A DNA stretch of 64,000 nt from a virus: positions 18,212 through 82,211 of IMG/VR virus record IMGVR_UViG_3300017613_001944; one strand, written 5' to 3'. Below are positions 15,507-60,233 of the stretch, piece by piece (positions within the stretch are counted from its first letter, which is position 1; the number at the start of each line of letters is the position of its first letter). Both the position numbers and the translations under genes were made by a program. The notes under the pieces are model-generated. The model made no database searches and was not told the origin of the DNA. It was given only the letters and a program-made list of their open reading frames with translations.

Positions 15507-18500
15507 CCCAGGGAGAGCTCTGCAAGACAGGGCAGAACAACGCGCTCAACAGCTTATGCGTGAGCGGCGTGGTTGGTCTTATTCTGCTGCACTCAACTTT
15601 GCTATGAATGAGTTGACGTATCAGCAGCAGCATGTCGTCCTGGATGTTGAGACAACGGGTGTAAAGAAGGGCGAGAACGAGCTCATCCAGATTGGTGCCA
15701 GGAAGTTTGGTCCTGGTGGAAAACCCGGAGAGACCTATCAAACCTTTGTTGATCCAGGTGGTCCAATTCCCCAGGACATCACTAATCTAACCGGCATCAG
15801 CACCCAGATGGTAATGGGTGCTCCCTCTCCACAACAGGCAGTCTCAGAACTGTCTCAGTTTGTAGGCAATCTCCCCGTCGTTGGTCACAATGTTGGCTTT
15901 GACATTGGCTTCCTGGGGATGCACGGCTTTGAAGCATCAACAGCAGCAGACACTCTAGCTGCATCCAGAGCCGCTATGCCACAACGTCGCAGCCACTCTC
16001 TTGCCAACATCGCCGCAGAGCAGGGGTGGGGAATACAACAGCACGAGGCCATGGCTGATGTTGGCATGACCTCCTTACTTCATAGTCAGCTAGCAACAAT
16101 GTATCAAGGAGGTGTTCCTCCACCGAGTGGACCACCTCCACCTGCAAACATCTCCCGCTCCATGGGACCCACGCAAAGGGCGTTGCCCCCAGCAGTGCAC
16201 GGCGCTGCTATGCAGTTGGGGATAGACGCACAGCAGGCTTCTGAGATCGTCAGCTCGGCTGGTGGTGGATCTATCCGCCAGCAGATAGAAGCCGTACAAC
16301 AGTTTGTATACAACAAGATAGGCAAACCCGCCCCCTTTGGCGGTAGTGCAGATCCCATGCAGGCTCTCTCCCCCACACAGTGGGTGCAAACCACAGAGAG
16401 TGGGCGTGCGATGACACGCACCATGACACCCTTGCCATCATCCTTTGATCCAGCTAAAGCGCAGGAGACATGGGACCCAGGGCAGATATCCTATCCTGGG
16501 AACAAGATGCAACTTGATCTTGAGCGCAGTCTTGGTGCTTCGATATGGCCTGTTCGAGGTGGGGCGATTCAGACGGGACTAGAAAAGCCTGAACAATTCC
16601 CCAAGCGAATTAAGCAAGCAATCTCGAACTATCAGCAGATTTATCTCAAGGACATGGAGATAGAGGAGGCTCCGTGGTTGACAGGGCCAACCTCTCAAGC
16701 TCCCGAGAAGGGGCAGACTCTTCGCACTGCTGTGGTGTTTGGCGGCTTTGCTCCCGAGGGCATGTCCTACATTAAGCAGGATCTGGGCTCCGCCGGGGAC
16801 TTCAAGTATCACAAGCTCCCTATTCCAGCAGGGGTGGTGCCAGAGGATATAGCTCCTGTCGGAACTGCATTTACTAGATCTCAGGGGGCACAGCTATTCA
16901 AGGGGCACACCGGCATCAAGTTTGGTGACTGGGAAGAGCAGCATGTTCAGGACATTAGATTTGAGCCTGGAGCCATCAACCAGCCAGGCGCTCTACACGT
17001 CAGAATGGGAAGGGGCATTCCTCTAACACGCGGTATCGGCTACTCGATGCACTCTGGTAAGGAGTTGCTGGTGGGTGCCGATGTCGAGAAGATGACTGGC
17101 AGAAGCGACATCCAGGTGGTGAAAGCTGGTCCCAGGGATGTGCTTGGTCTGGCATTCCAGGCATACAGCTCCATGGCTCCAGCCGAATACGAGAGGGTAA
17201 CTGGCAAGCCGCGCCCTGCCACTTGGCAACAAGCTGCCGCAGATGAAGAGTCTATGGCAGCTTTTGATCGGATGGCTAGTGACAACGCCACGATGCTCCA
17301 GTTCCCCGACCAAATTATCTCTAAAGCCAACCTTGAGGCTTTTAAAGAGGGCAATAGGATAGTTCCCGGCACATTAGAAGAGCTCGGCGGCGAGAGATAC
17401 CGTGCCACCCTGGAGTATCCAGCGGTGGTAATGGATCTCTTTACCCAGTTCACCCGTGGGGCCTATGAGCATGGTCAACCATTTGTTGGGGAGGGTACTC
17501 TCCGGCGAATAAGAGACGCCAACCCTCAACTCTACAACCAGATGATGGGTGAGGGAAAGCAGCAGCGTGAGTGGAGACAGCAAAACGTCCAGGCATACAC
17601 TGCCAGCAGAGGAATACCGGGATTAAGGCAAGCTCCAGACCAATACACTATGGCAAGGGATCTTCCCTGGACTAACATTACACAAGACGCTACTCGCAGA
17701 GCCATGAAGATCAGCGGTGTTGATCGCCCCGAGGATATCCCTTACGGCGCAGAACAAGCAGCACTGTTACAACGAATCCCTCTAACTCACGAGGGTCGAG
17801 CCACAGGAGCTCTCGCCTTCGAGAGCCGTGGCAAGGATTATTTCTTCCCCCATCCCAGGCATGTCCCCGCCGTACCAGGGACCTTGGGCTATGAAGAACG
17901 AAGCGCCTATAGGCACCGCTACGCAAATCTACTCCAGGAACAAATGAGGTATCAAGAGACTGGTGAGGAGGAGCCGTATCGCTCTGCCCTTGCTGGTACA
18001 ATGCTAGCTAGTCACCGTCTTGTAAGCTCCGGCGAATTTCTAAAGCGCACGCTGGGCGTAGAGCCACGAAGTCTATATGGTGGCATGGGTGCTGCATCTT
18101 TCGCCAATCTTCCCGAAGAGCTGTATATGCCAACAGAGGCTGCTGCAAGAGCCAGTGGTATCAAGGTTGGCACTCCCGAATATGAAAGATTCCAGCGCAA
18201 TTTCGAGTCAGGCGGTTATCAGTTTGCTGCCTCTGTATTCCGGGAGCCTACCACTGATACGGCGGGAGTGCTGGTGAAGGGACTGGTCAAGTGGATAGGC
18301 ACACATCCAAACGAAACTCTTCGGGACGCACGTATACCAGTCTTGTCTGCGGAGATGGGCCAGACACTAAGAGGCGACTTTGACAAGGACGCCTACACCA
18401 TTGCCAGGGAGTGGGGCATTGATCTAGCAGATGCCCAAACTCTCAAGATACAAATGCGCGACTTCAATCTTTCAAATGCCCAGGCTGACAAGGCAGGACA

Positions 18501-52610: not shown

Positions 52611-52846
52611 TCATCCTCCCCGGCGCGGTTCTTGTCGATGGTGCGCTGGACTTGGTCCATTGCACATTCGAGCTTTGCTTCTGGCATGAGAGTAATTACT
52701 GCCTCAATTGATAATGTCAAGTCTCCACCAGCATACAGCCGTTTGAAGAAGTGCTGTTGCTTTTCCGTACACAACATCAATCCTTTCTTCAATTCGTGTC
52801 TTGCTGTTTGAGACGACTCGTCTTGTATCTCCCGATAGCTTTTCAC
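52592..52846 (-). CDS. Hypothetical protein
   Basis: Coupled ORF. Confidence 0.5.
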   Translation of the reverse strand: MKSYREIQDESSQTARHELKKGLMLCTEKQQHFFKRLYAGGDLTLSIEAVITLMPEAKLECAMDQVQRTIDKNRAGEDECTTEQ

Positions 52847-53130
52847 GTTACCTTCTCCGCCGTGCTGGCGTCGAGCGCGGCGTGGGCATTGCGATAAGCC
52901 TCACACCTGTCACAATCGCAATTTAGCTTTGGTTCGTGCATCCAGTCGATAGCATCGCGCAACGCCTCCCGCAGCGCATCGCGTTCGGCGCGGAGGGCGG
53001 CGTTATCTCTGCGGATATTGATATTTTCAACTCTCCATTCCTTAATGACAAAATCCGTAACATCTTGTAGGCACGACTTACACAATGGAATGCCTTCGCT
53101 TAATTCTATCTCGCACTTTTCGCAGTTCAT
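52843..53130 (-). CDS. Mosaic small protein with ALRAERDALR..ALDAS module
   Basis: Shared repeat module. Confidence 0.6.
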   Translation of the reverse strand: MNCEKCEIELSEGIPLCKSCLQDVTDFVIKEWRVENINIRRDNAALRAERDALREALRDAIDWMHEPKLNCDCDRCEAYRNAHAALDASTAEKVT

Positions 53131-53135
53131 CCTCC

Positions 53136-53408
53136 CTACCTCCCATCCGTATCGCTGGCGTCGAGCGCGGCGCTCAGTTTGATTACAGCCGTAATAAATT
53201 GTTCATCATCCGAGCCGAGCCAGTCCATCACCTGCATCCTTAGCCGTATTGGGCCTTTGCTAATAGCAGCGATCACATCCTGTGCGGCATCCCGCAGCGC
53301 GTCGCGTTCGGCGCGGAGAGCAGCGCATTCAAAAACGAATGTCTCAAATATCTCTAGGCGTTCCTCATCTAAGCAGTTTGCTACCCTATCAAAACCTTTT
53401 TGGTCCAT
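53136..53408 (-). CDS. Mosaic small protein with ALRAERDALR..ALDAS module
   Basis: Shared repeat module. Confidence 0.6.
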   Translation of the reverse strand: MDQKGFDRVANCLDEERLEIFETFVFECAALRAERDALRDAAQDVIAAISKGPIRLRMQVMDWLGSDDEQFITAVIKLSAALDASDTDGR

Positions 53409-53412
53409 CTCT

Positions 53413-53625
53413 CTACCTCTCATCCACCACGCTCCACGCCCCGGCGTCATCGTCGCCACTCTTCACTACGTCCACGTCCCCCGCGTCGGCGTCTTCGCGC
53501 TGTCTGCGCCACATACGATACCGTATTAGAAGATTTCCCAACCAATAGCGGGGGCGATAGACATACCACCAGAATCGGTAGCGCCAGTCTTTCATCAGTT
53601 CGGCATGTAAGTCGCGATGTTTCAT
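53413..53625 (-). CDS. Small protein ending in a VVKSG module
   Basis: GGAGG RBS; shared module. Confidence 0.5.
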   Translation of the reverse strand: MKHRDLHAELMKDWRYRFWWYVYRPRYWLGNLLIRYRMWRRQREDADAGDVDVVKSGDDDAGAWSVVDER

Positions 53626-53627
53626 TG

Positions 53628-53933
53628 CTACTCCTCCCCCGCGCCACTCTTCACTACGTTCGAGTGCTCCGTGGCGTCTTCGTCGTCATCTGATACTTCA
53701 AAATCTCCACTTATCCATTTTTCAAAAGCGTTTGCCAAGTCAGCGGCGGCACCTATGATAAAGTCGGTGTTATGAGGATCATGGCGTCTATGCCACGCCT
53801 TTTTTGCTTCACACTCTGCAAAACACTCAGACGTACGAGCGAGACAGTCTACACACTCAATCCACCACCACTTTTCTAGATGACGAATCTCTGCTTTTCC
53901 TCCACAAAATGGACAACTAGCTAACTCACTCAT
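53628..53933 (-). CDS. Lar-family restriction-alleviation-like protein
   Basis: LASCPFCGGKA..IECVDC..EAKKAWHRR. Confidence 0.7.
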   Translation of the reverse strand: MSELASCPFCGGKAEIRHLEKWWWIECVDCLARTSECFAECEAKKAWHRRHDPHNTDFIIGAAADLANAFEKWISGDFEVSDDDEDATEHSNVVKSGAGEE

Positions 53934-54321
53934 ATTCTCCATCCTCCCCCGCCCCGCCGTCATCGTCGCTGGCGTTGAGCGCGGCGCTATTTATTTCCGC
54001 GATGGTAAGGACCACCACTTTTAGAGCCGACTCTGGTACAACGCCGCGCTCTATCAATTCGATCAATGTGGTTTTTGCCGCCTCACACGCCTCCCGCAGC
54101 GCATCGCGTTCGGCGCGGAGGGTGTTCGTTTCTTCTTCGTAGAAAATAACTGAGTTATCATTGGCTGGATGTAGCGGCGTGTCTAGCTCAAAATCGCCAA
54201 CCAACATCAATTCACCGCAACTGAGGCAGACACAATAAAGCAATCCACCATCGGCACTTTCGGCGTATCCAATAGCGTCTGCTGCATCACACTCTAAACA
54301 TTGGTAAACAAGGGTATCCAT
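53926..54321 (-). CDS. Mosaic small protein with zinc finger and LRAERDALR module
   Basis: Shared repeat module. Confidence 0.55.
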   Translation of the reverse strand: MDTLVYQCLECDAADAIGYAESADGGLLYCVCLSCGELMLVGDFELDTPLHPANDNSVIFYEEETNTLRAERDALREACEAAKTTLIELIERGVVPESALKVVVLTIAEINSAALNASDDDGGAGEDGEYE

Positions 54322-54323
54322 CT

Positions 54324-54701
54324 CTACCTTCCTTCGTCGCTGGCGTCGAGCGCGGATTTTGCCACGCCAAGCGCATCAAACAGCGGGATGTCACTGAGGT
54401 TTGTTTCGGGGTTTGCTGCAATATACAGTTCTTGCAGCGCTCCCCGCAGTGCGTCCTGCTCAACGACTGCCGCGTCACGTTCGGCGCGTAAATCTTTTAA
54501 TGCACCTGTTGTCATTATTCGCCAACCCTCAAAATCTTTATGGAATGCTGATAGTTGTGTGTCCAGGTGGTCATAGGCACGGTTTAGCTTTTCATTCTCT
54601 GATTGCAGCGCGTCACGTTCGGCGCGGAGGGCGTCGAGTTCTTCATGCCTCGCCTTGGTCACCATTATCAGATCGTCTGCCACACTTTTGTCAATTTTCA
54701 T
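54324..54701 (-). CDS. Mosaic coiled-coil protein with two LRAERDA modules
   Basis: Shared repeat module. Confidence 0.6.
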   Translation of the reverse strand: MKIDKSVADDLIMVTKARHEELDALRAERDALQSENEKLNRAYDHLDTQLSAFHKDFEGWRIMTTGALKDLRAERDAAVVEQDALRGALQELYIAANPETNLSDIPLFDALGVAKSALDASDEGR

Positions 54702-55458: not shown

Positions 55459-55490
55459 AAAAACAAAAGACCCTGCAAATGCAGAGTCTT
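55459..55490 (-). terminator. Intrinsic terminator closing the large ncRNA
   Basis: AAGAC.CTGCA/TGCAG.GTCTT stem followed by TTGTTTTT on the - strand. Confidence 0.65.
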
Positions 55491-56365
55491 GTTTGATCCT
55501 TAGTTAGACTTCCTTTGGATCTGCCTAGAGCTTTTGCCCCCGTACCCGTTGATTGCGAGTCTTCGGTTAAGGGCTTATCCGGTAGTCTTACGACCACCAC
55601 CCCGGCACAACCGCCTTTTAGTTTACGGGTCTGGCGTTCGACCCATGCAGCAGGTTTACTCCACACTCTAGCGCACTCTTGCCCTGGCCTGGGAAAGATG
55701 ATTGCCTCGGCATGAACCCCCATCAACCTTGCGGGTATCAGGGGACCCAGATTCGCAATGCGTCTGGGCTTAGGTTATTTTTCTACCTGCCCTGGAGTCA
55801 GTCTTTGCATTTTACAGTACGATCCATATTCGTATGCTTGATTGCTCAAGCGATGCAACCAACAGCGACGTGCTGACCCCAGTGGTGGCGTGACTGTCTC
55901 CAGCCACGATATGCCACACGCCACTTGTGTTTCGGGGGAGCTACCCCTACCGCACCGTCCTTCGCGATCCCTGGCCTGGGCCAAGATCCACTTGAACTGC
56001 TACCCGCCCTCACCCGCTACGGCTTGGACTAAATAACTACCCTTTGGTGTACCTCTTCGCAGTTTGCTAGGTAATCTCTCCTGCCGGAGAGAAAAGCCCC
56101 TTACAGTGTTACCCTCGGGAGCCCTGTCCCATCTGCTTCAGAGTTAGCTTCTCCCCGGAGGAGAAGCCAAGCACCTCAGCTTGCCTGAGTGGACCACTTT
56201 CGTGGTGACGGTATGTTGGCTTTCCGTCTTTGGGCAACTTACGTTGCTTATCCTCAAGGATGTCAGGCCACCCTGTGTACTACCTATTCAATTATTAAAG
56301 ATTCCTGGGCTAAGAGATCGACCAGTTACCTTATCTCTTAGCCCACTTGCAAAGTGGTCCTCTAC
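55491..56365 (-). ncRNA. Large structured ncRNA (GOLLD-like), ~870-900 nt including leader
   Basis: Own promoter and terminator, no credible ORF, many hairpins with GNRA loops (GAAA, GUAA, GCAA), boxA-like leader. Confidence 0.65.
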
Positions 56366-56371
56366 GCGACT

Positions 56372-56400
56372 ATCTTATCACACTATGTACAGTGTGTCAA
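56372..56400 (-). promoter_or_regulatory. Sigma70 promoter driving the large ncRNA
   Basis: TTGACA-CACTGTACATAGTGTGA-TAAGAT; near-identical to the 55.07 kb promoter. Confidence 0.8.
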
Positions 56401-57052
56401 GCCGTGCTGAACTTTGCCGTACTTCACATCACCGTTGCAATGTGTCACGGTTCTCAGCTTTGCCATCGCTCGACTTCACACCGAACCGCCGCGCCCATCC
56501 ACTGCGTGACCCAGCTGCACTCAGTATTGCCCTTGCTTGGCTTTACTTGACTTGGCTTCGCCCTTGCTATGCTCTGCGGTACTGCGCTCGGCAGTGCCTT
56601 TGCACTACTTCACACGGATGAATCACGCCCTTGCATAACTGCGCCCCACCCGGATGAGCAACGCCGTCGCCTCGCTTTACTCAGTGTTACTATGCCAAGC
56701 CGTTGCCACGCCTCACCGAGTATTATGGCGCTAGGCCCTTGCTATACGCAGCCCTGCCACACACCGTGCCGCGCCACCATCGCACTGCTCCACTCCACAC
56801 TACCAGGCCATTGCTGTGCCGTGCCACGCCTGATTGTGCACTGCCATTGCTACACTTAGCACCACGCGACGGCACCTCGCCATTGCTGGACTCCGTGGTG
56901 CAACACCCCGCCATTGCTGCGCGGCACTTTGCCTTACCATCGCTTCACGCCACTAAGCGCAGCTATGCCATCGCTCTACATAGCTTGGTGGAGCTATGCA
57001 ATACCACTGCCGTGCGTCACCCTGCGGCACCTCGTGGGGCTAGGCCCTAGCT
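56401..57052 (-). repeat. Pentamer-phased non-coding array (candidate guide-RNA array) directly downstream of the Cas7-like gene
   Basis: 19 anchors (+ strand RCCnnnGC) spaced 26/31/36/41 nt; 96 of 101 intervening pentamers start with RY on the + strand. Confidence 0.85.
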
Positions 57053-57637
57053 TAGTTCCTCTAGAGTGTACGTGAAGCTTCCCCATCCACCATTCCGCCA
57101 CTGACCCAGACCACGCAACTCGCCATAGTACAGCCACTCTGTTAGCAGAGATTCATCCACCACACCCAGGATACTCACCTTAAACTCCAGCGTCGTACCT
57201 GGAGGACAAGTGTGTGAGTGCGCCAGTGCCACTCGGGGACCCCGTGGCGTGTCGATCCTAATGGGACGCTCATTGGTACCCATCTCAGAGCCGTTGAGAT
57301 TCAGTAAGATCTTGCGTGGTGCTATGAATACCACACCATCAACCACCTTCTTGTAAGCCGTGAGCTTCGATGACTTTGTGCCAGCACAACGTCGTAGCAT
57401 GCCACAGGCGTCTTTGAAGAAACCCTTGATAACATAGTCATATAGGAATGGTGTGCCATCAACCATATGAAAGCCAGTCCACCCCTTGTCTAGATTCTCT
57501 GGTACTGTCTCGAGCTCTCCTTCTAGCTGCTCCTCTGGGAGATCGTTCCCAATGTGGGCTTTGTAGATGTCCTTATCGGGAACAGTTCCTAGAATCTCTG
57601 TTGTAAGCATTAACTTCACATTGTACTCGTCCATCAT
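57047..57637 (-). CDS. Solo Cas7/RAMP-like RNA-binding protein
   Basis: TTEILGTVP N-terminal strand, YVIKGFFKDAC helix, C-terminal Gly-rich loop GLGQWRNGGWGSF. Confidence 0.75.
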   Translation of the reverse strand: MMDEYNVKLMLTTEILGTVPDKDIYKAHIGNDLPEEQLEGELETVPENLDKGWTGFHMVDGTPFLYDYVIKGFFKDACGMLRRCAGTKSSKLTAYKKVVDGVVFIAPRKILLNLNGSEMGTNERPIRIDTPRGPRVALAHSHTCPPGTTLEFKVSILGVVDESLLTEWLYYGELRGLGQWRNGGWGSFTYTLEELS

Positions 57638-59166: not shown

Positions 59167-59832
59167 ATGGATACTTCTGATACCCCTACCACACTGGAAA
59201 AAACTGGACCCATCCCTGCCAAGCTGAAAGATGGCTTCTTGGTGGCGCTGACTGCCAGATATGGCAATGGTCTACGCATCAATCAAGCCTTCGAGCTACC
59301 CGACACTCCCGATAGGACCACATACTACCGCTATCTCAAGAGTCATGCTGATGAGATGCACCTCATTGATAGTGAGGCGAGAGAGACGGCGATGTATGGG
59401 CAGTCGGGTGAGCAGATGTCCTTTGACGCCGAGCAGTTCCTTGTCTCAACAGAGCTACAGCGTCTCGCTCGAGATAGTCTGGCCCCCATCATTGAGCACA
59501 TGGCAGAGCTAGCACAGGGCCTGCCCTACACTATGGGCTCTGGTGATAACGAACGCCAGGTTACTCCTCATCCCCGTGACAGAGTTGACGCCGCCAAGGT
59601 GGTCGTGATGATTGCCAAGGAGGGCGTGATGAACGGTGTTCAGGCTTGGACCAGGGGCATGGAGAGAGCAATCTCTGCTGGCAGAGCTTCTGGTAAGATA
59701 GAGCAGAAGTCACTACTCCCCATGCTTGGTGTATCACCTGACTTCTCCAGGGTTGAAGCCACCAAACCCGACGGCACTAAACTCATAGCTGCCGTCGAGT
59801 ATGGTGCTGATGTCATCGACTCAGAAGATTAG
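59167..59832 (+). CDS. HTH protein, possibly terminase small subunit
   Basis: PDRTTYYRYLKSH helix-turn-helix followed by helical region; lone + strand gene. Confidence 0.5.
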   Translation: MDTSDTPTTLEKTGPIPAKLKDGFLVALTARYGNGLRINQAFELPDTPDRTTYYRYLKSHADEMHLIDSEARETAMYGQSGEQMSFDAEQFLVSTELQRLARDSLAPIIEHMAELAQGLPYTMGSGDNERQVTPHPRDRVDAAKVVVMIAKEGVMNGVQAWTRGMERAISAGRASGKIEQKSLLPMLGVSPDFSRVEATKPDGTKLIAAVEYGADVIDSED

Positions 59833-60233
59833 AATGGGATCGAATCACCGTCATCGTCCTGAGCTGGGGCATCGCCGTCTTGACGACCACCCAAGAACAG
59901 AACGTTCCGAGCACGAAGCTCAAACGACGCGCCGTAGGTGCCATCGCTCTTCTTGTAGACCTTGGGACCACCATTCTCGGGATCGTGGACAAGCGTGCCG
60001 ACGACCTGCACCTGACGACCCTTCGACAGGTACTGATTAGCAGCCTCTCCCTGGGGACCCCACACTGAGACACGGAACCACTTGACTGACTCCCTGGTCT
60101 CGCCGTCCTGGGTCTTCCACTTGTTATTGACAGCCACCGACAGGTTAGTCACTGGCGTACCGTCCTGGGTGTACCGCATCTCGGGATCACGACCTAGGTT
60201 ACCAACAATAATCATTTGTTCAAAACCAGACAT
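59829..60233 (-). CDS. ssb: Single-stranded DNA-binding protein
   Basis: IVGNLGRDPEMRYT, WFRVSVWG, YLSKGRQV, acidic tail DSIPF. Confidence 0.95.
   Translation of the reverse strand: MSGFEQMIIVGNLGRDPEMRYTQDGTPVTNLSVAVNNKWKTQDGETRESVKWFRVSVWGPQGEAANQYLSKGRQVQVVGTLVHDPENGGPKVYKKSDGTYGASFELRARNVLFLGGRQDGDAPAQDDDGDSIPF

Follow-up and report, generated by a model that had tools for sequence, protein, structure and literature searches.

A virus genome carries a probable VIPR locus in which a predicted minimal-RAMP gene adjoins an array of short, pentamer-coded RNA units

RESULTS

A vipr gene is followed by an array of 19 short units

We analyzed a 64,000-nucleotide stretch of viral DNA (positions 18,212 to 82,211 of the 82,211-base IMG/VR record IMGVR_UViG_3300017613_001944; here called the window) and found that it very probably contains a phage-borne Viral Interference Programmable Repeat (VIPR) system, made of a Vipr gene and 19 short vrRNA units on the same transcript. 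VIPR systems were described in 2026 preprints (bioRxiv 10.64898/2026.04.26.720920 and 10.64898/2026.04.26.720927). The vipr gene of the window (57047-57637, minus strand) encodes a 196-aa predicted minimal RAMP of the Vipr family with a C-terminal glycine-rich loop (G-loop; GLGQWRNGGWGSF) and is the last gene in a run of small overlapping open reading frames (ORFs) on the minus strand. A first-pass annotation of this DNA had proposed that a pentamer-coded guide array starts exactly at the stop codon of the 196-aa gene. This proposal held up, the array being of the VIPR type: it spans 56401-57049 on the minus strand and opens with a leader hexamer (57044-57049) that includes the stop codon, after which 19 units follow head to tail.

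Read on the minus strand, which is the RNA sense, the array was split into 5-mers and 6-mers by dynamic programming. This segmentation gave 107 pentamers and 18 hexamers in 19 units, each of which consists of 4 to 7 NNNGY pentamers and, in all but the last, a closing hexamer RANGGY. With the higher coordinate as the start, units 1 to 10 occupy 57003-57043 (41 nt, 7 pentamers plus the hexamer), 56967-57002 (36 nt), 56936-56966 (31 nt), 56910-56935 (26 nt, the shortest, with 4 pentamers plus the hexamer), 56879-56909 (31 nt), 56843-56878 (36 nt), 56807-56842 (36 nt), 56776-56806 (31 nt), 56735-56775 (41 nt) and 56699-56734 (36 nt). Units 11 to 18 lie at 56663-56698 (36 nt), 56627-56662 (36 nt), 56596-56626 (31 nt), 56560-56595 (36 nt), 56529-56559 (31 nt), 56493-56528 (36 nt), 56462-56492 (31 nt) and 56431-56461 (31 nt), and unit 19 (56401-56430), which has 6 pentamers and no closing hexamer, extends into the -35 box of the next promoter. 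The 18 spacings between successive starts, equal to the lengths of units 1 to 18, are all of the form 5n+1. This is in full agreement with the 19 anchors reported in the first-pass annotation, which sit one base away from our unit starts.

Position 4 of the pentamers was a G in 93 of 107 cases, and position 5 was a C or a T in 105. NNNGY fitted 91 of the 107 pentamers and NNN-RY 102, a figure that replaces an earlier hand count of 96 out of 101 for the same pattern (RY-NNN on the plus strand). Since the canonical NNGGY repeat (GGY/NN, YNNGG) fitted only 23 of 107, which is chance level for a G at position 3, the canonical GGY is not kept in this array. Positions 1 to 3 were highly variable (entropy of 1.88 to 1.97 bits), with position 3 (N3) somewhat rich in A (44/107), and the variable strings of the 19 units were all distinct, as had been noted for the triplets. 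The hexamer, R-A-N-G-G-Y, carried GG in 18 of 18 cases and was preceded by a pentamer ending in GC in 17; the composite motif GC-RAN-GGY matched 16 times.

The periodicity was then quantified by autocorrelation, a check that the first-pass annotation had suggested. The array scored 0.39 at lag 5, compared to 0.26 at lag 3, with peaks at lags 5 and 10. At the 5n+1 lags (26, 31, 36 and 41) the values were 0.37 to 0.44 (0.42 at lag 31 and 0.44 at lag 36), compared to 0.22 to 0.28 at the 5n lags (25, 30, 35 and 40; 0.24 at lag 30 and 0.22 at lag 35). Period 5 thus exceeds period 3 and the 5n+1 step breaks the frame, in line with the earlier statement that this region is incompatible with codon structure. 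Furthermore, the segmentation score of the array was 227, against 59 ± 7 for 200 shuffles (maximum, 84), 38 ± 11 for 496 other windows of the same 82-kb genome on both strands (maximum, 84.5) and 127.5 for the opposite strand of the array. In a whole-genome scan for period 5, the top six windows all fell within the array; a weak signal at genome positions 11.4-11.9 kb was inspected and rejected as an array.

Folding of the array RNA did not exceed that of shuffled sequences (z = -0.31), and Tandem Repeats Finder did not detect the array. An Rfam search, ribozymes included, found no family inside the array or at the 8 closest loci, and the 19 peptides decoded from the units showed no recognizable motif by eye. 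Between 55300 and 58400, there is a single promoter-like site on the minus strand (56400-56372), and it lies at the far end of the array. Because of this, the array is most likely made as a 3' extension of the vipr transcript.

The protein is homologous to the solved Vipr of phage SUSP1

As a reference, we took from the genome record of Escherichia phage SUSP1 the 195-aa gene flanked by long intergenic regions. Residues 1 to 195 of its product were identical to the PDB 36pp chain named "SUSP1 Vipr protein" (E = 2e-130), and the region downstream of the gene contained the published pentamer repeats with intervening tails. We compared two family alignments, a diverse one built around the window protein (A3, 80 sequences) and one of the SUSP1 Vipr family (A2, 30 sequences). 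Their profiles aligned by hhalign over 187 collinear columns, which is full length (94.3%, E = 1e-7). With a shallower alignment (A1) the value was 58% (E = 9.7e-5), and against the single sequence it was 24%. BLASTP of the window protein against SUSP1 Vipr aligned the G-loop only (E = 0.029).

Among PDB sequences, the A3 profile also matched, within its G-loop region, chain 21bh_B of Cas7 (E = 5.4e-5) and chains of Csm4 (E = 2.3e-4). The ESM Atlas model of the window protein (pTM 0.76) reached TM scores of 0.68 to 0.71 to a PF03787 RAMP cluster. The nearest Atlas clusters were 88 to 98% viral, one of them being automatically named "Cas system-associated RAMP superfamily protein." The less sensitive searches were negative: Pfam and PHROGs hold no family for Vipr or the neighboring proteins, the Pfam RAMPs model matched nowhere in the genome, phmmer with the single window protein found nothing among PDB sequences, and blastn against phage records gave no match. 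By profile comparison, then, the window protein is a homologue of the SUSP1 Vipr whose structure has been solved, and very probably a minimal RAMP of the same type. This agrees with its first description as RAMP-like and with the likeness to phage VIPR systems that the first-pass annotation had pointed out. The family of the window protein, which is mostly viral, comprises 2114 proteins at E ≤ 1e-3 among 5.8 billion searched (2011 representatives of 50% clusters), and its C terminus carries the invariant glycine-rich loop GLGQWRN-G-G-F.

Residues that read the first G of GGY in SUSP1 appear to be replaced in the window clade

According to the cryo-EM study of SUSP1 (10.64898/2026.04.26.720927), each repeat is bound by a single protomer. 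His17 and Asp177 read the first G of GGY (G1), Arg138 and Trp178 hold the second (G2), and the pyrimidine (Y3) is held by the next protomer, Arg179 included. The NN pair is shown to the target, and one target base is extruded per repeat. These residues are well conserved in the GGY family: H17 in 27 of 30 sequences, D177 in 25 (with E in 4 more), W or Y at 178 in 29, and R179 and R138 in all 30. In the window family, position 18, which adjoins a conserved L-G in the first strand, is never His (77 of the 80 sequences have T, S or A there), and the G-loop reads Q-W-R (Q179 in 71/80, W180 in 77/80 and R181 in 78/80). As judged from the alignment of these two clades, the residues for G2 and Y3 appear to be kept and both G1-reading residues to be replaced across the window clade. 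This loss fits an array RNA that keeps G-Y but has lost the first G.

In addition, two positions of the putative thumb region, 140 and 142, are histidines in the window protein, whereas close relatives have R (30/33) and D (30/33) there, respectively. This is an unusual pair of changes.

The array is conserved across homologous loci

To our window we added 4 homologues found by tblastn in phage records (L001 to L004), 66 loci from IMG/VR (L006 to L071) with proteins 32 to 59% identical to that of the window, and 45 loci from one-genome-per-species contigs (L072 to L116) in metagenome bins labeled Chloroflexota, Anaerolineae, Planctomycetota, Clostridia, Coriobacteriia, Prevotella and others. 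A period-5 region abutted the vipr homologue in all 70 phage and IMG/VR loci. In 65 of them, G or R occupied position 4 on the gene strand and the 5n+1 lags exceeded the 5n lags; the other five each failed one strict array criterion. Of these 65 loci, 38 have the array downstream of the gene, 25 have it upstream and 2 have it on both sides. An adjacent array was also found at 42 of the 45 genome-contig loci, two of the three misses being contigs that end inside the gene. Overall, an array adjoined the vipr gene in 112 of 115 homologous loci, and the free letters differed entirely between loci; the first-pass annotation had suggested this comparison of homologues. These counts show that the register-shifted 5n+1 layout belongs to the clade as a whole and is not peculiar to this phage.

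Across the clade we extracted 672 distinct units and then 438 more. The first 672 had 4 to 12 repeats, most often 5 or 6 counting the hexamer. Near-identical units in related phages differed almost solely at the three free positions: in 54 pairs, which are not independent of each other, mismatches at pentamer positions 1 to 5 numbered 35, 17, 30, 2 and 11 of 252.

The unit delimiter was AAnGGC in the closest relatives L007, L009 and L014. In L006 (4605-5100), whose protein is 59% identical, it was AAYAGC, so the base added in the six-letter step can be one other than G. On one 86-kb contig (JAGCAN010000001.1), the same vipr gene and array occurred twice, about 48 kb apart and with identical statistics (L095 and L097); the contig may represent a single phage genome assembled as a concatemer.

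The third free letter and searches for targets

We lean slightly toward the view that the third free letter takes part in recognition. With two letters per repeat, a unit of 4 to 7 pentamers specifies only 8 to 14 bases, compared to 12 to 21 with three, and this favors the three-letter reading. When patterns of the two-letter size were searched in 1.2 Mb of unrelated phage DNA, about half of the units found a perfect match, and permuted controls found one equally often. Furthermore, stop triplets in the N1N2N3 register numbered 113, against 156.6 expected from position frequencies and 137.9 from a dinucleotide-aware model; in an independent second set, there were 76 against 107.8 and 87.0, respectively. 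With the dinucleotide-aware expectation, the depletion corresponds to z values of -2.1 and -1.2, for units that are not independent, and TAA was depleted relative to TAC and TAT. We take this depletion as a hint: it is real but weak and in part reflects TA avoidance. It is consistent with free triplets that, in some of the guides, shadow codons.

Decoding the guides and searching phage DNA for their targets, as the first-pass annotation had proposed, yielded chance-level matches only. Eight to twelve rules were used, reading NNN with target steps of 3 to 6 or N1N2 or N2N3 with steps of 2 to 5. No rule stood out when 369 units were compared to 0.6 Mb comprising 68 loci and the phage's own genome. 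Similarly, 93 units from 14 whole phage contigs of one metagenome, searched against those same contigs (0.61 Mb), behaved like permuted units under all 12 rules. Finally, 236 windows of ten repeats that cross unit boundaries were compared to 1.5 Mb, both with and without an added target base at the hexamer, and the best matches had 5 to 7 mismatches per 30. The searched sequence set is small and probably lacks the rival elements.

Genomic context

Cas1 (PF01867) had no match in the genome and CRISPR-like direct repeats were absent from the window, in support of the earlier claim that cas genes and a CRISPR array are missing; for Cas2, Cas5 and Cas6, which were part of that claim, no individual searches were made. 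Only vipr was common to the 70 phage and IMG/VR loci, among which we found no conserved accessory (vap) gene. Upstream of vipr, two ORFs of 53 and 130 aa matched no Pfam or PHROG family. The 130-aa ORF also had no DNA-binding look-alike in the ESM Atlas and is an uncharacterized phage protein.

Directly downstream of the array, on the same strand, lies a GOLLD-like RNA region (55467-56400). It contains a match to GOLLD RNA (RF02032; 55500-55926, minus strand) whose score of 96.8 bits (E = 2e-25) falls short of the family's gathering score, 150. At 56400-56372 the region has the promoter-like sequence TTGACA-17-TAAGAT with TG, and at 55490-55467 it has a terminator-like hairpin. A structured RNA of roughly 900 nt had been flagged here in the first-pass annotation, and the GOLLD-like RNA accounts for it. 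GOLLD has been described as forming RNA-only cages (PMC12286853). Since none of the 8 closest vipr loci had a GOLLD match, its position next to the array looks incidental.

Two further features of the window were recorded. Five consecutive minus-strand ORFs of 95 to 131 aa (52843-54701) each contain the peptide RAERDALR once or twice and are otherwise different. A minus-strand ORF of 134 aa (59829-60233), which by eye we take to resemble a single-stranded-DNA-binding protein, is the only other gene of the window with homologues near vipr (6 of 70 loci, 27 to 54% identical).

DISCUSSION

Relation to published VIPR systems and other RAMP filaments

The closest known system is the type II VIPR of Escherichia phage SUSP1, which consists of Vipr, vap1 and four vrRNAs (PDB 36pp). 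At both loci a phage encodes a Vipr of about 195 aa, and the two proteins agree in length, in the order of their domains and in the G-loop (G-x-G-[D/Q]-W-R). In both, an RNA of 5-nt repeats, in which fixed letters alternate with hypervariable ones, adjoins the gene, and there is no cas1 and no CRISPR array. Instead of NNGGY, the repeat in the window reads NNNGY, with two fixed and three free letters, and the His and Asp that read G1 in SUSP1 are replaced. Moreover, the 19 units abut without spacers, whereas the SUSP1 vrRNAs, of about 100 nt, are separated by nonrepeat sequence. SUSP1 has vap1, and no vap homologue was found at the 70 loci compared here.

The mismatch to the canonical GGY does not exclude the locus from VIPR, because the first preprint (10.64898/2026.04.26.720920) admits, besides GGY/NN, "a related consensus" and lists the alternative repeats NNNGG, YNNNG and NNNNG in its Methods ("VIPR type classification"). 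YNNNG is NNNGY in another register. The same preprint also names "staggered vrRNA arrays." The legend of its fig. S18 mentions "1 nt overlapping positions" and "individual processed vrRNAs," while the array of the window has one extra base per boundary (5n+1). Judged from the Methods and legend text alone, the 5n+1 hexamer grammar is likely to be the published staggered form. The kind of system is thus already published, and the "distinct variant" announced in the first-pass annotation was an overstatement, having been largely anticipated by the YNNNG repeats and staggered arrays named there. The word "hexamer" does not occur in the text of the first preprint, whose Results text contains no experimental test of staggered arrays and which states confirmation by small-RNA sequencing only for the ribozyme and single-vrRNA forms. 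Likewise, "staggered," "YNNNG" and "processing" are absent from the text of the satellite preprint (10.64898/2026.10.15.759431). We found no further literature on the staggered or 5n+1 form in a search that left aside the supplementary figures and tables of the first preprint. We conclude that the locus is a genuine VIPR member, of a sub-form with three variable letters and a six-letter step that goes beyond the bench-tested GGY/NN type II.

Two other comparisons are instructive. The VIPR motifs obtained with a language model (10.64898/2026.10.21.760802) likewise place Vipr-like folds beside period-5 arrays. As described there, these arrays have three fixed and two free letters, the fixed trinucleotide being degenerate at one position (e.g., WGT/NN or TGH/NN), and their motifs are repeated 10 times. 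In the window, on the other hand, the first of these three letters is fully free and the runs are 4 to 7 long. The Cas7 backbone filaments of Class 1 CRISPR systems (Cascade, Csm/Cmr) share with the VIPR system proposed here the RAMP fold with a G-loop, as well as one protomer per fixed RNA step and a thumb that flips out bases at regular intervals. Unlike them, the window array has a step of 5 nt instead of 6, with the guide interleaved with fixed letters instead of forming a contiguous spacer. CRISPR repeats, Cas6 handles, a Cas5 cap, large and small subunits and adaptation genes, all features of Class 1 systems, are not found here.

Proposed mechanism

By analogy to the SUSP1 structures, one Vipr protomer would bind each pentamer. 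G4 and Y5 would correspond to G2 and Y3 of GGY and would be flipped out and locked by W180 and R181 of the conserved G-loop. The first-pass annotation had each subunit grip the constant GY and present the variable bases. The cryo-EM work (10.64898/2026.04.26.720927) supports this for G2 and Y3 of SUSP1; for the window protein we infer the same by homology. The letter in place of G1 would no longer be read by the protein, because the equivalents of His17 and Asp177 are replaced across the clade. The free letters would then be offered for gapped pairing with the double-stranded DNA of a competing mobile element, whose transcription would be silenced.

The extra base of the hexamer misfits a strict 5-nt step, which leaves two roles for it: to separate one filament from the next or to be the mark of a cut. 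The long RNA would in this way be divided, by cleavage or by interruption of the filament, into 19 separate guides of 5 to 8 protomers, about one helical turn each. The SUSP1 filament is described as having six subunits per turn when free and five on DNA (10.64898/2026.04.26.720927). A typical unit of 5 or 6 repeats thus resembles one turn of that filament, which may or may not be meaningful.

Alternative explanations and points against the proposed reading

The alternative that we regard as having an appreciable, although clearly below-even, chance keeps the VIPR assignment and differs only in the code. As in the published systems, N1 and N2 would pair, one target base would be skipped and N3 would be flipped out like G1 and left unconstrained, in which case the short units would have to act jointly on one target region to gain specificity. 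Two features are indeed central to the published mechanism, a codon-matched period of 3 and a pocket in the thumb bundle through which each protomer extrudes one target base (10.64898/2026.04.26.720920 and 10.64898/2026.04.26.720927). The A-richness of N3 is what a free position under mutational bias might show, and in near-identical units its mismatch count is close to that of N1 (30 and 35 of 252). The low information content of two-letter guides speaks against this code, real and permuted patterns of that size being matched alike in unrelated phage DNA, and the depletion of stop triplets and of TAA hints that N3 is not free, even if it shrinks under the dinucleotide-aware model. In a more distant alternative, which we consider improbable, the array would stay uncut as one long Vipr-coated RNA with the hexamers as register breaks or hinges, serving as a multisite scaffold or as a sponge or decoy for the Vipr of a rival. 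Units of 26 to 41 nt leave no space for promoters, terminators, ribozymes or structured handles of their own, no Rfam family was found in the array or at the 8 closest loci, and satellites are described as using solo vrRNAs as redirecting decoys (10.64898/2026.10.15.759431). Against this, the presence of the phage's own vipr gene beside the array in nearly all loci fits a cognate guide set, the legend of fig. S18 speaks of processed vrRNAs, and the ten-repeat windows across unit boundaries revealed no continuous target.

It is very unlikely that the complex targets RNA, as the type III CRISPR RAMP complexes do, or has a nonguide function. Outside Vipr, the nearest matches of known structure are to one chain of Cas7 and to Csm4 chains of type III systems, but these cover the shared G-loop only, whereas the homology to the DNA-binding SUSP1 Vipr extends over the full length; moreover, no nuclease or other effector gene is conserved nearby in the 70 loci. 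Although mechanically predicted ORFs of 53 to 146 aa cross the array, we give practically no credence to the idea that the region is coding sequence or a set of DNA-level repeats such as protein-binding iterons. Period 5 prevails over period 3, no reading frame can be kept across the 5n+1 register, the array pattern is strand specific both in segmentation score and in the G or R at position 4 (65/70 loci), and the free letters are wholly different between homologous loci.

Several observations weigh against the reading of the locus as a VIPR system with 19 short guides. The 4 to 7 pentamers and hexamer of its units, with no structured 3' tail, differ from the vrRNAs tested so far, which have 9 to 16 repeats and a tail or pseudoknot; biogenesis and filament capping may differ because of this. 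In the first preprint (10.64898/2026.04.26.720920), 9 to 16 repeats with a conserved structured 3' tail define type II and not all types. No vap gene is conserved next to vipr across the 70 loci; the same text calls VIPR loci "typically" two-gene and names six vap genes for seven types. No target emerged under the 12 skip rules from a small set of related and co-occurring phage DNA (0.6 to 1.5 Mb). The residue argument compares two clades only, and the His17 column is ambiguous, pairing with T18 in two alignments and falling in a gap in the A3-A2 alignment. Lastly, the window protein has His142 where 72 of the 80 sequences of its family have E or D.

Significance

For the clade as a whole, we tentatively propose a grammar of three read and two gripped letters per protomer, with one-turn guides arranged head to tail, the one-base shift of AAnGGY as delimiter or processing signal, and neither tail nor accessory protein; this complete picture is possible but doubtful. 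If the third letter pairs with the target, the code would differ from the published NN plus one skipped base and would be a contiguous-codon or 3+1 code, and the D-to-Q and His-loss changes in Vipr would represent the switch between codes. A third letter that is read would also make the code denser and the guides shorter.

As a discovery, the locus is no longer surprising. In VIPR, DNA is read by an RNA in a manner described only recently. The bench-tested form of it is the GGY/NN type II only, and this locus, with one gene and a 650-nt array, is a compact natural example of an untested form. It raises the questions of how a one-base shift delimits guides without handles and whether two residue changes retune which RNA letters are gripped. 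Answering them would extend the rules by which a very small programmable DNA binder can be designed.

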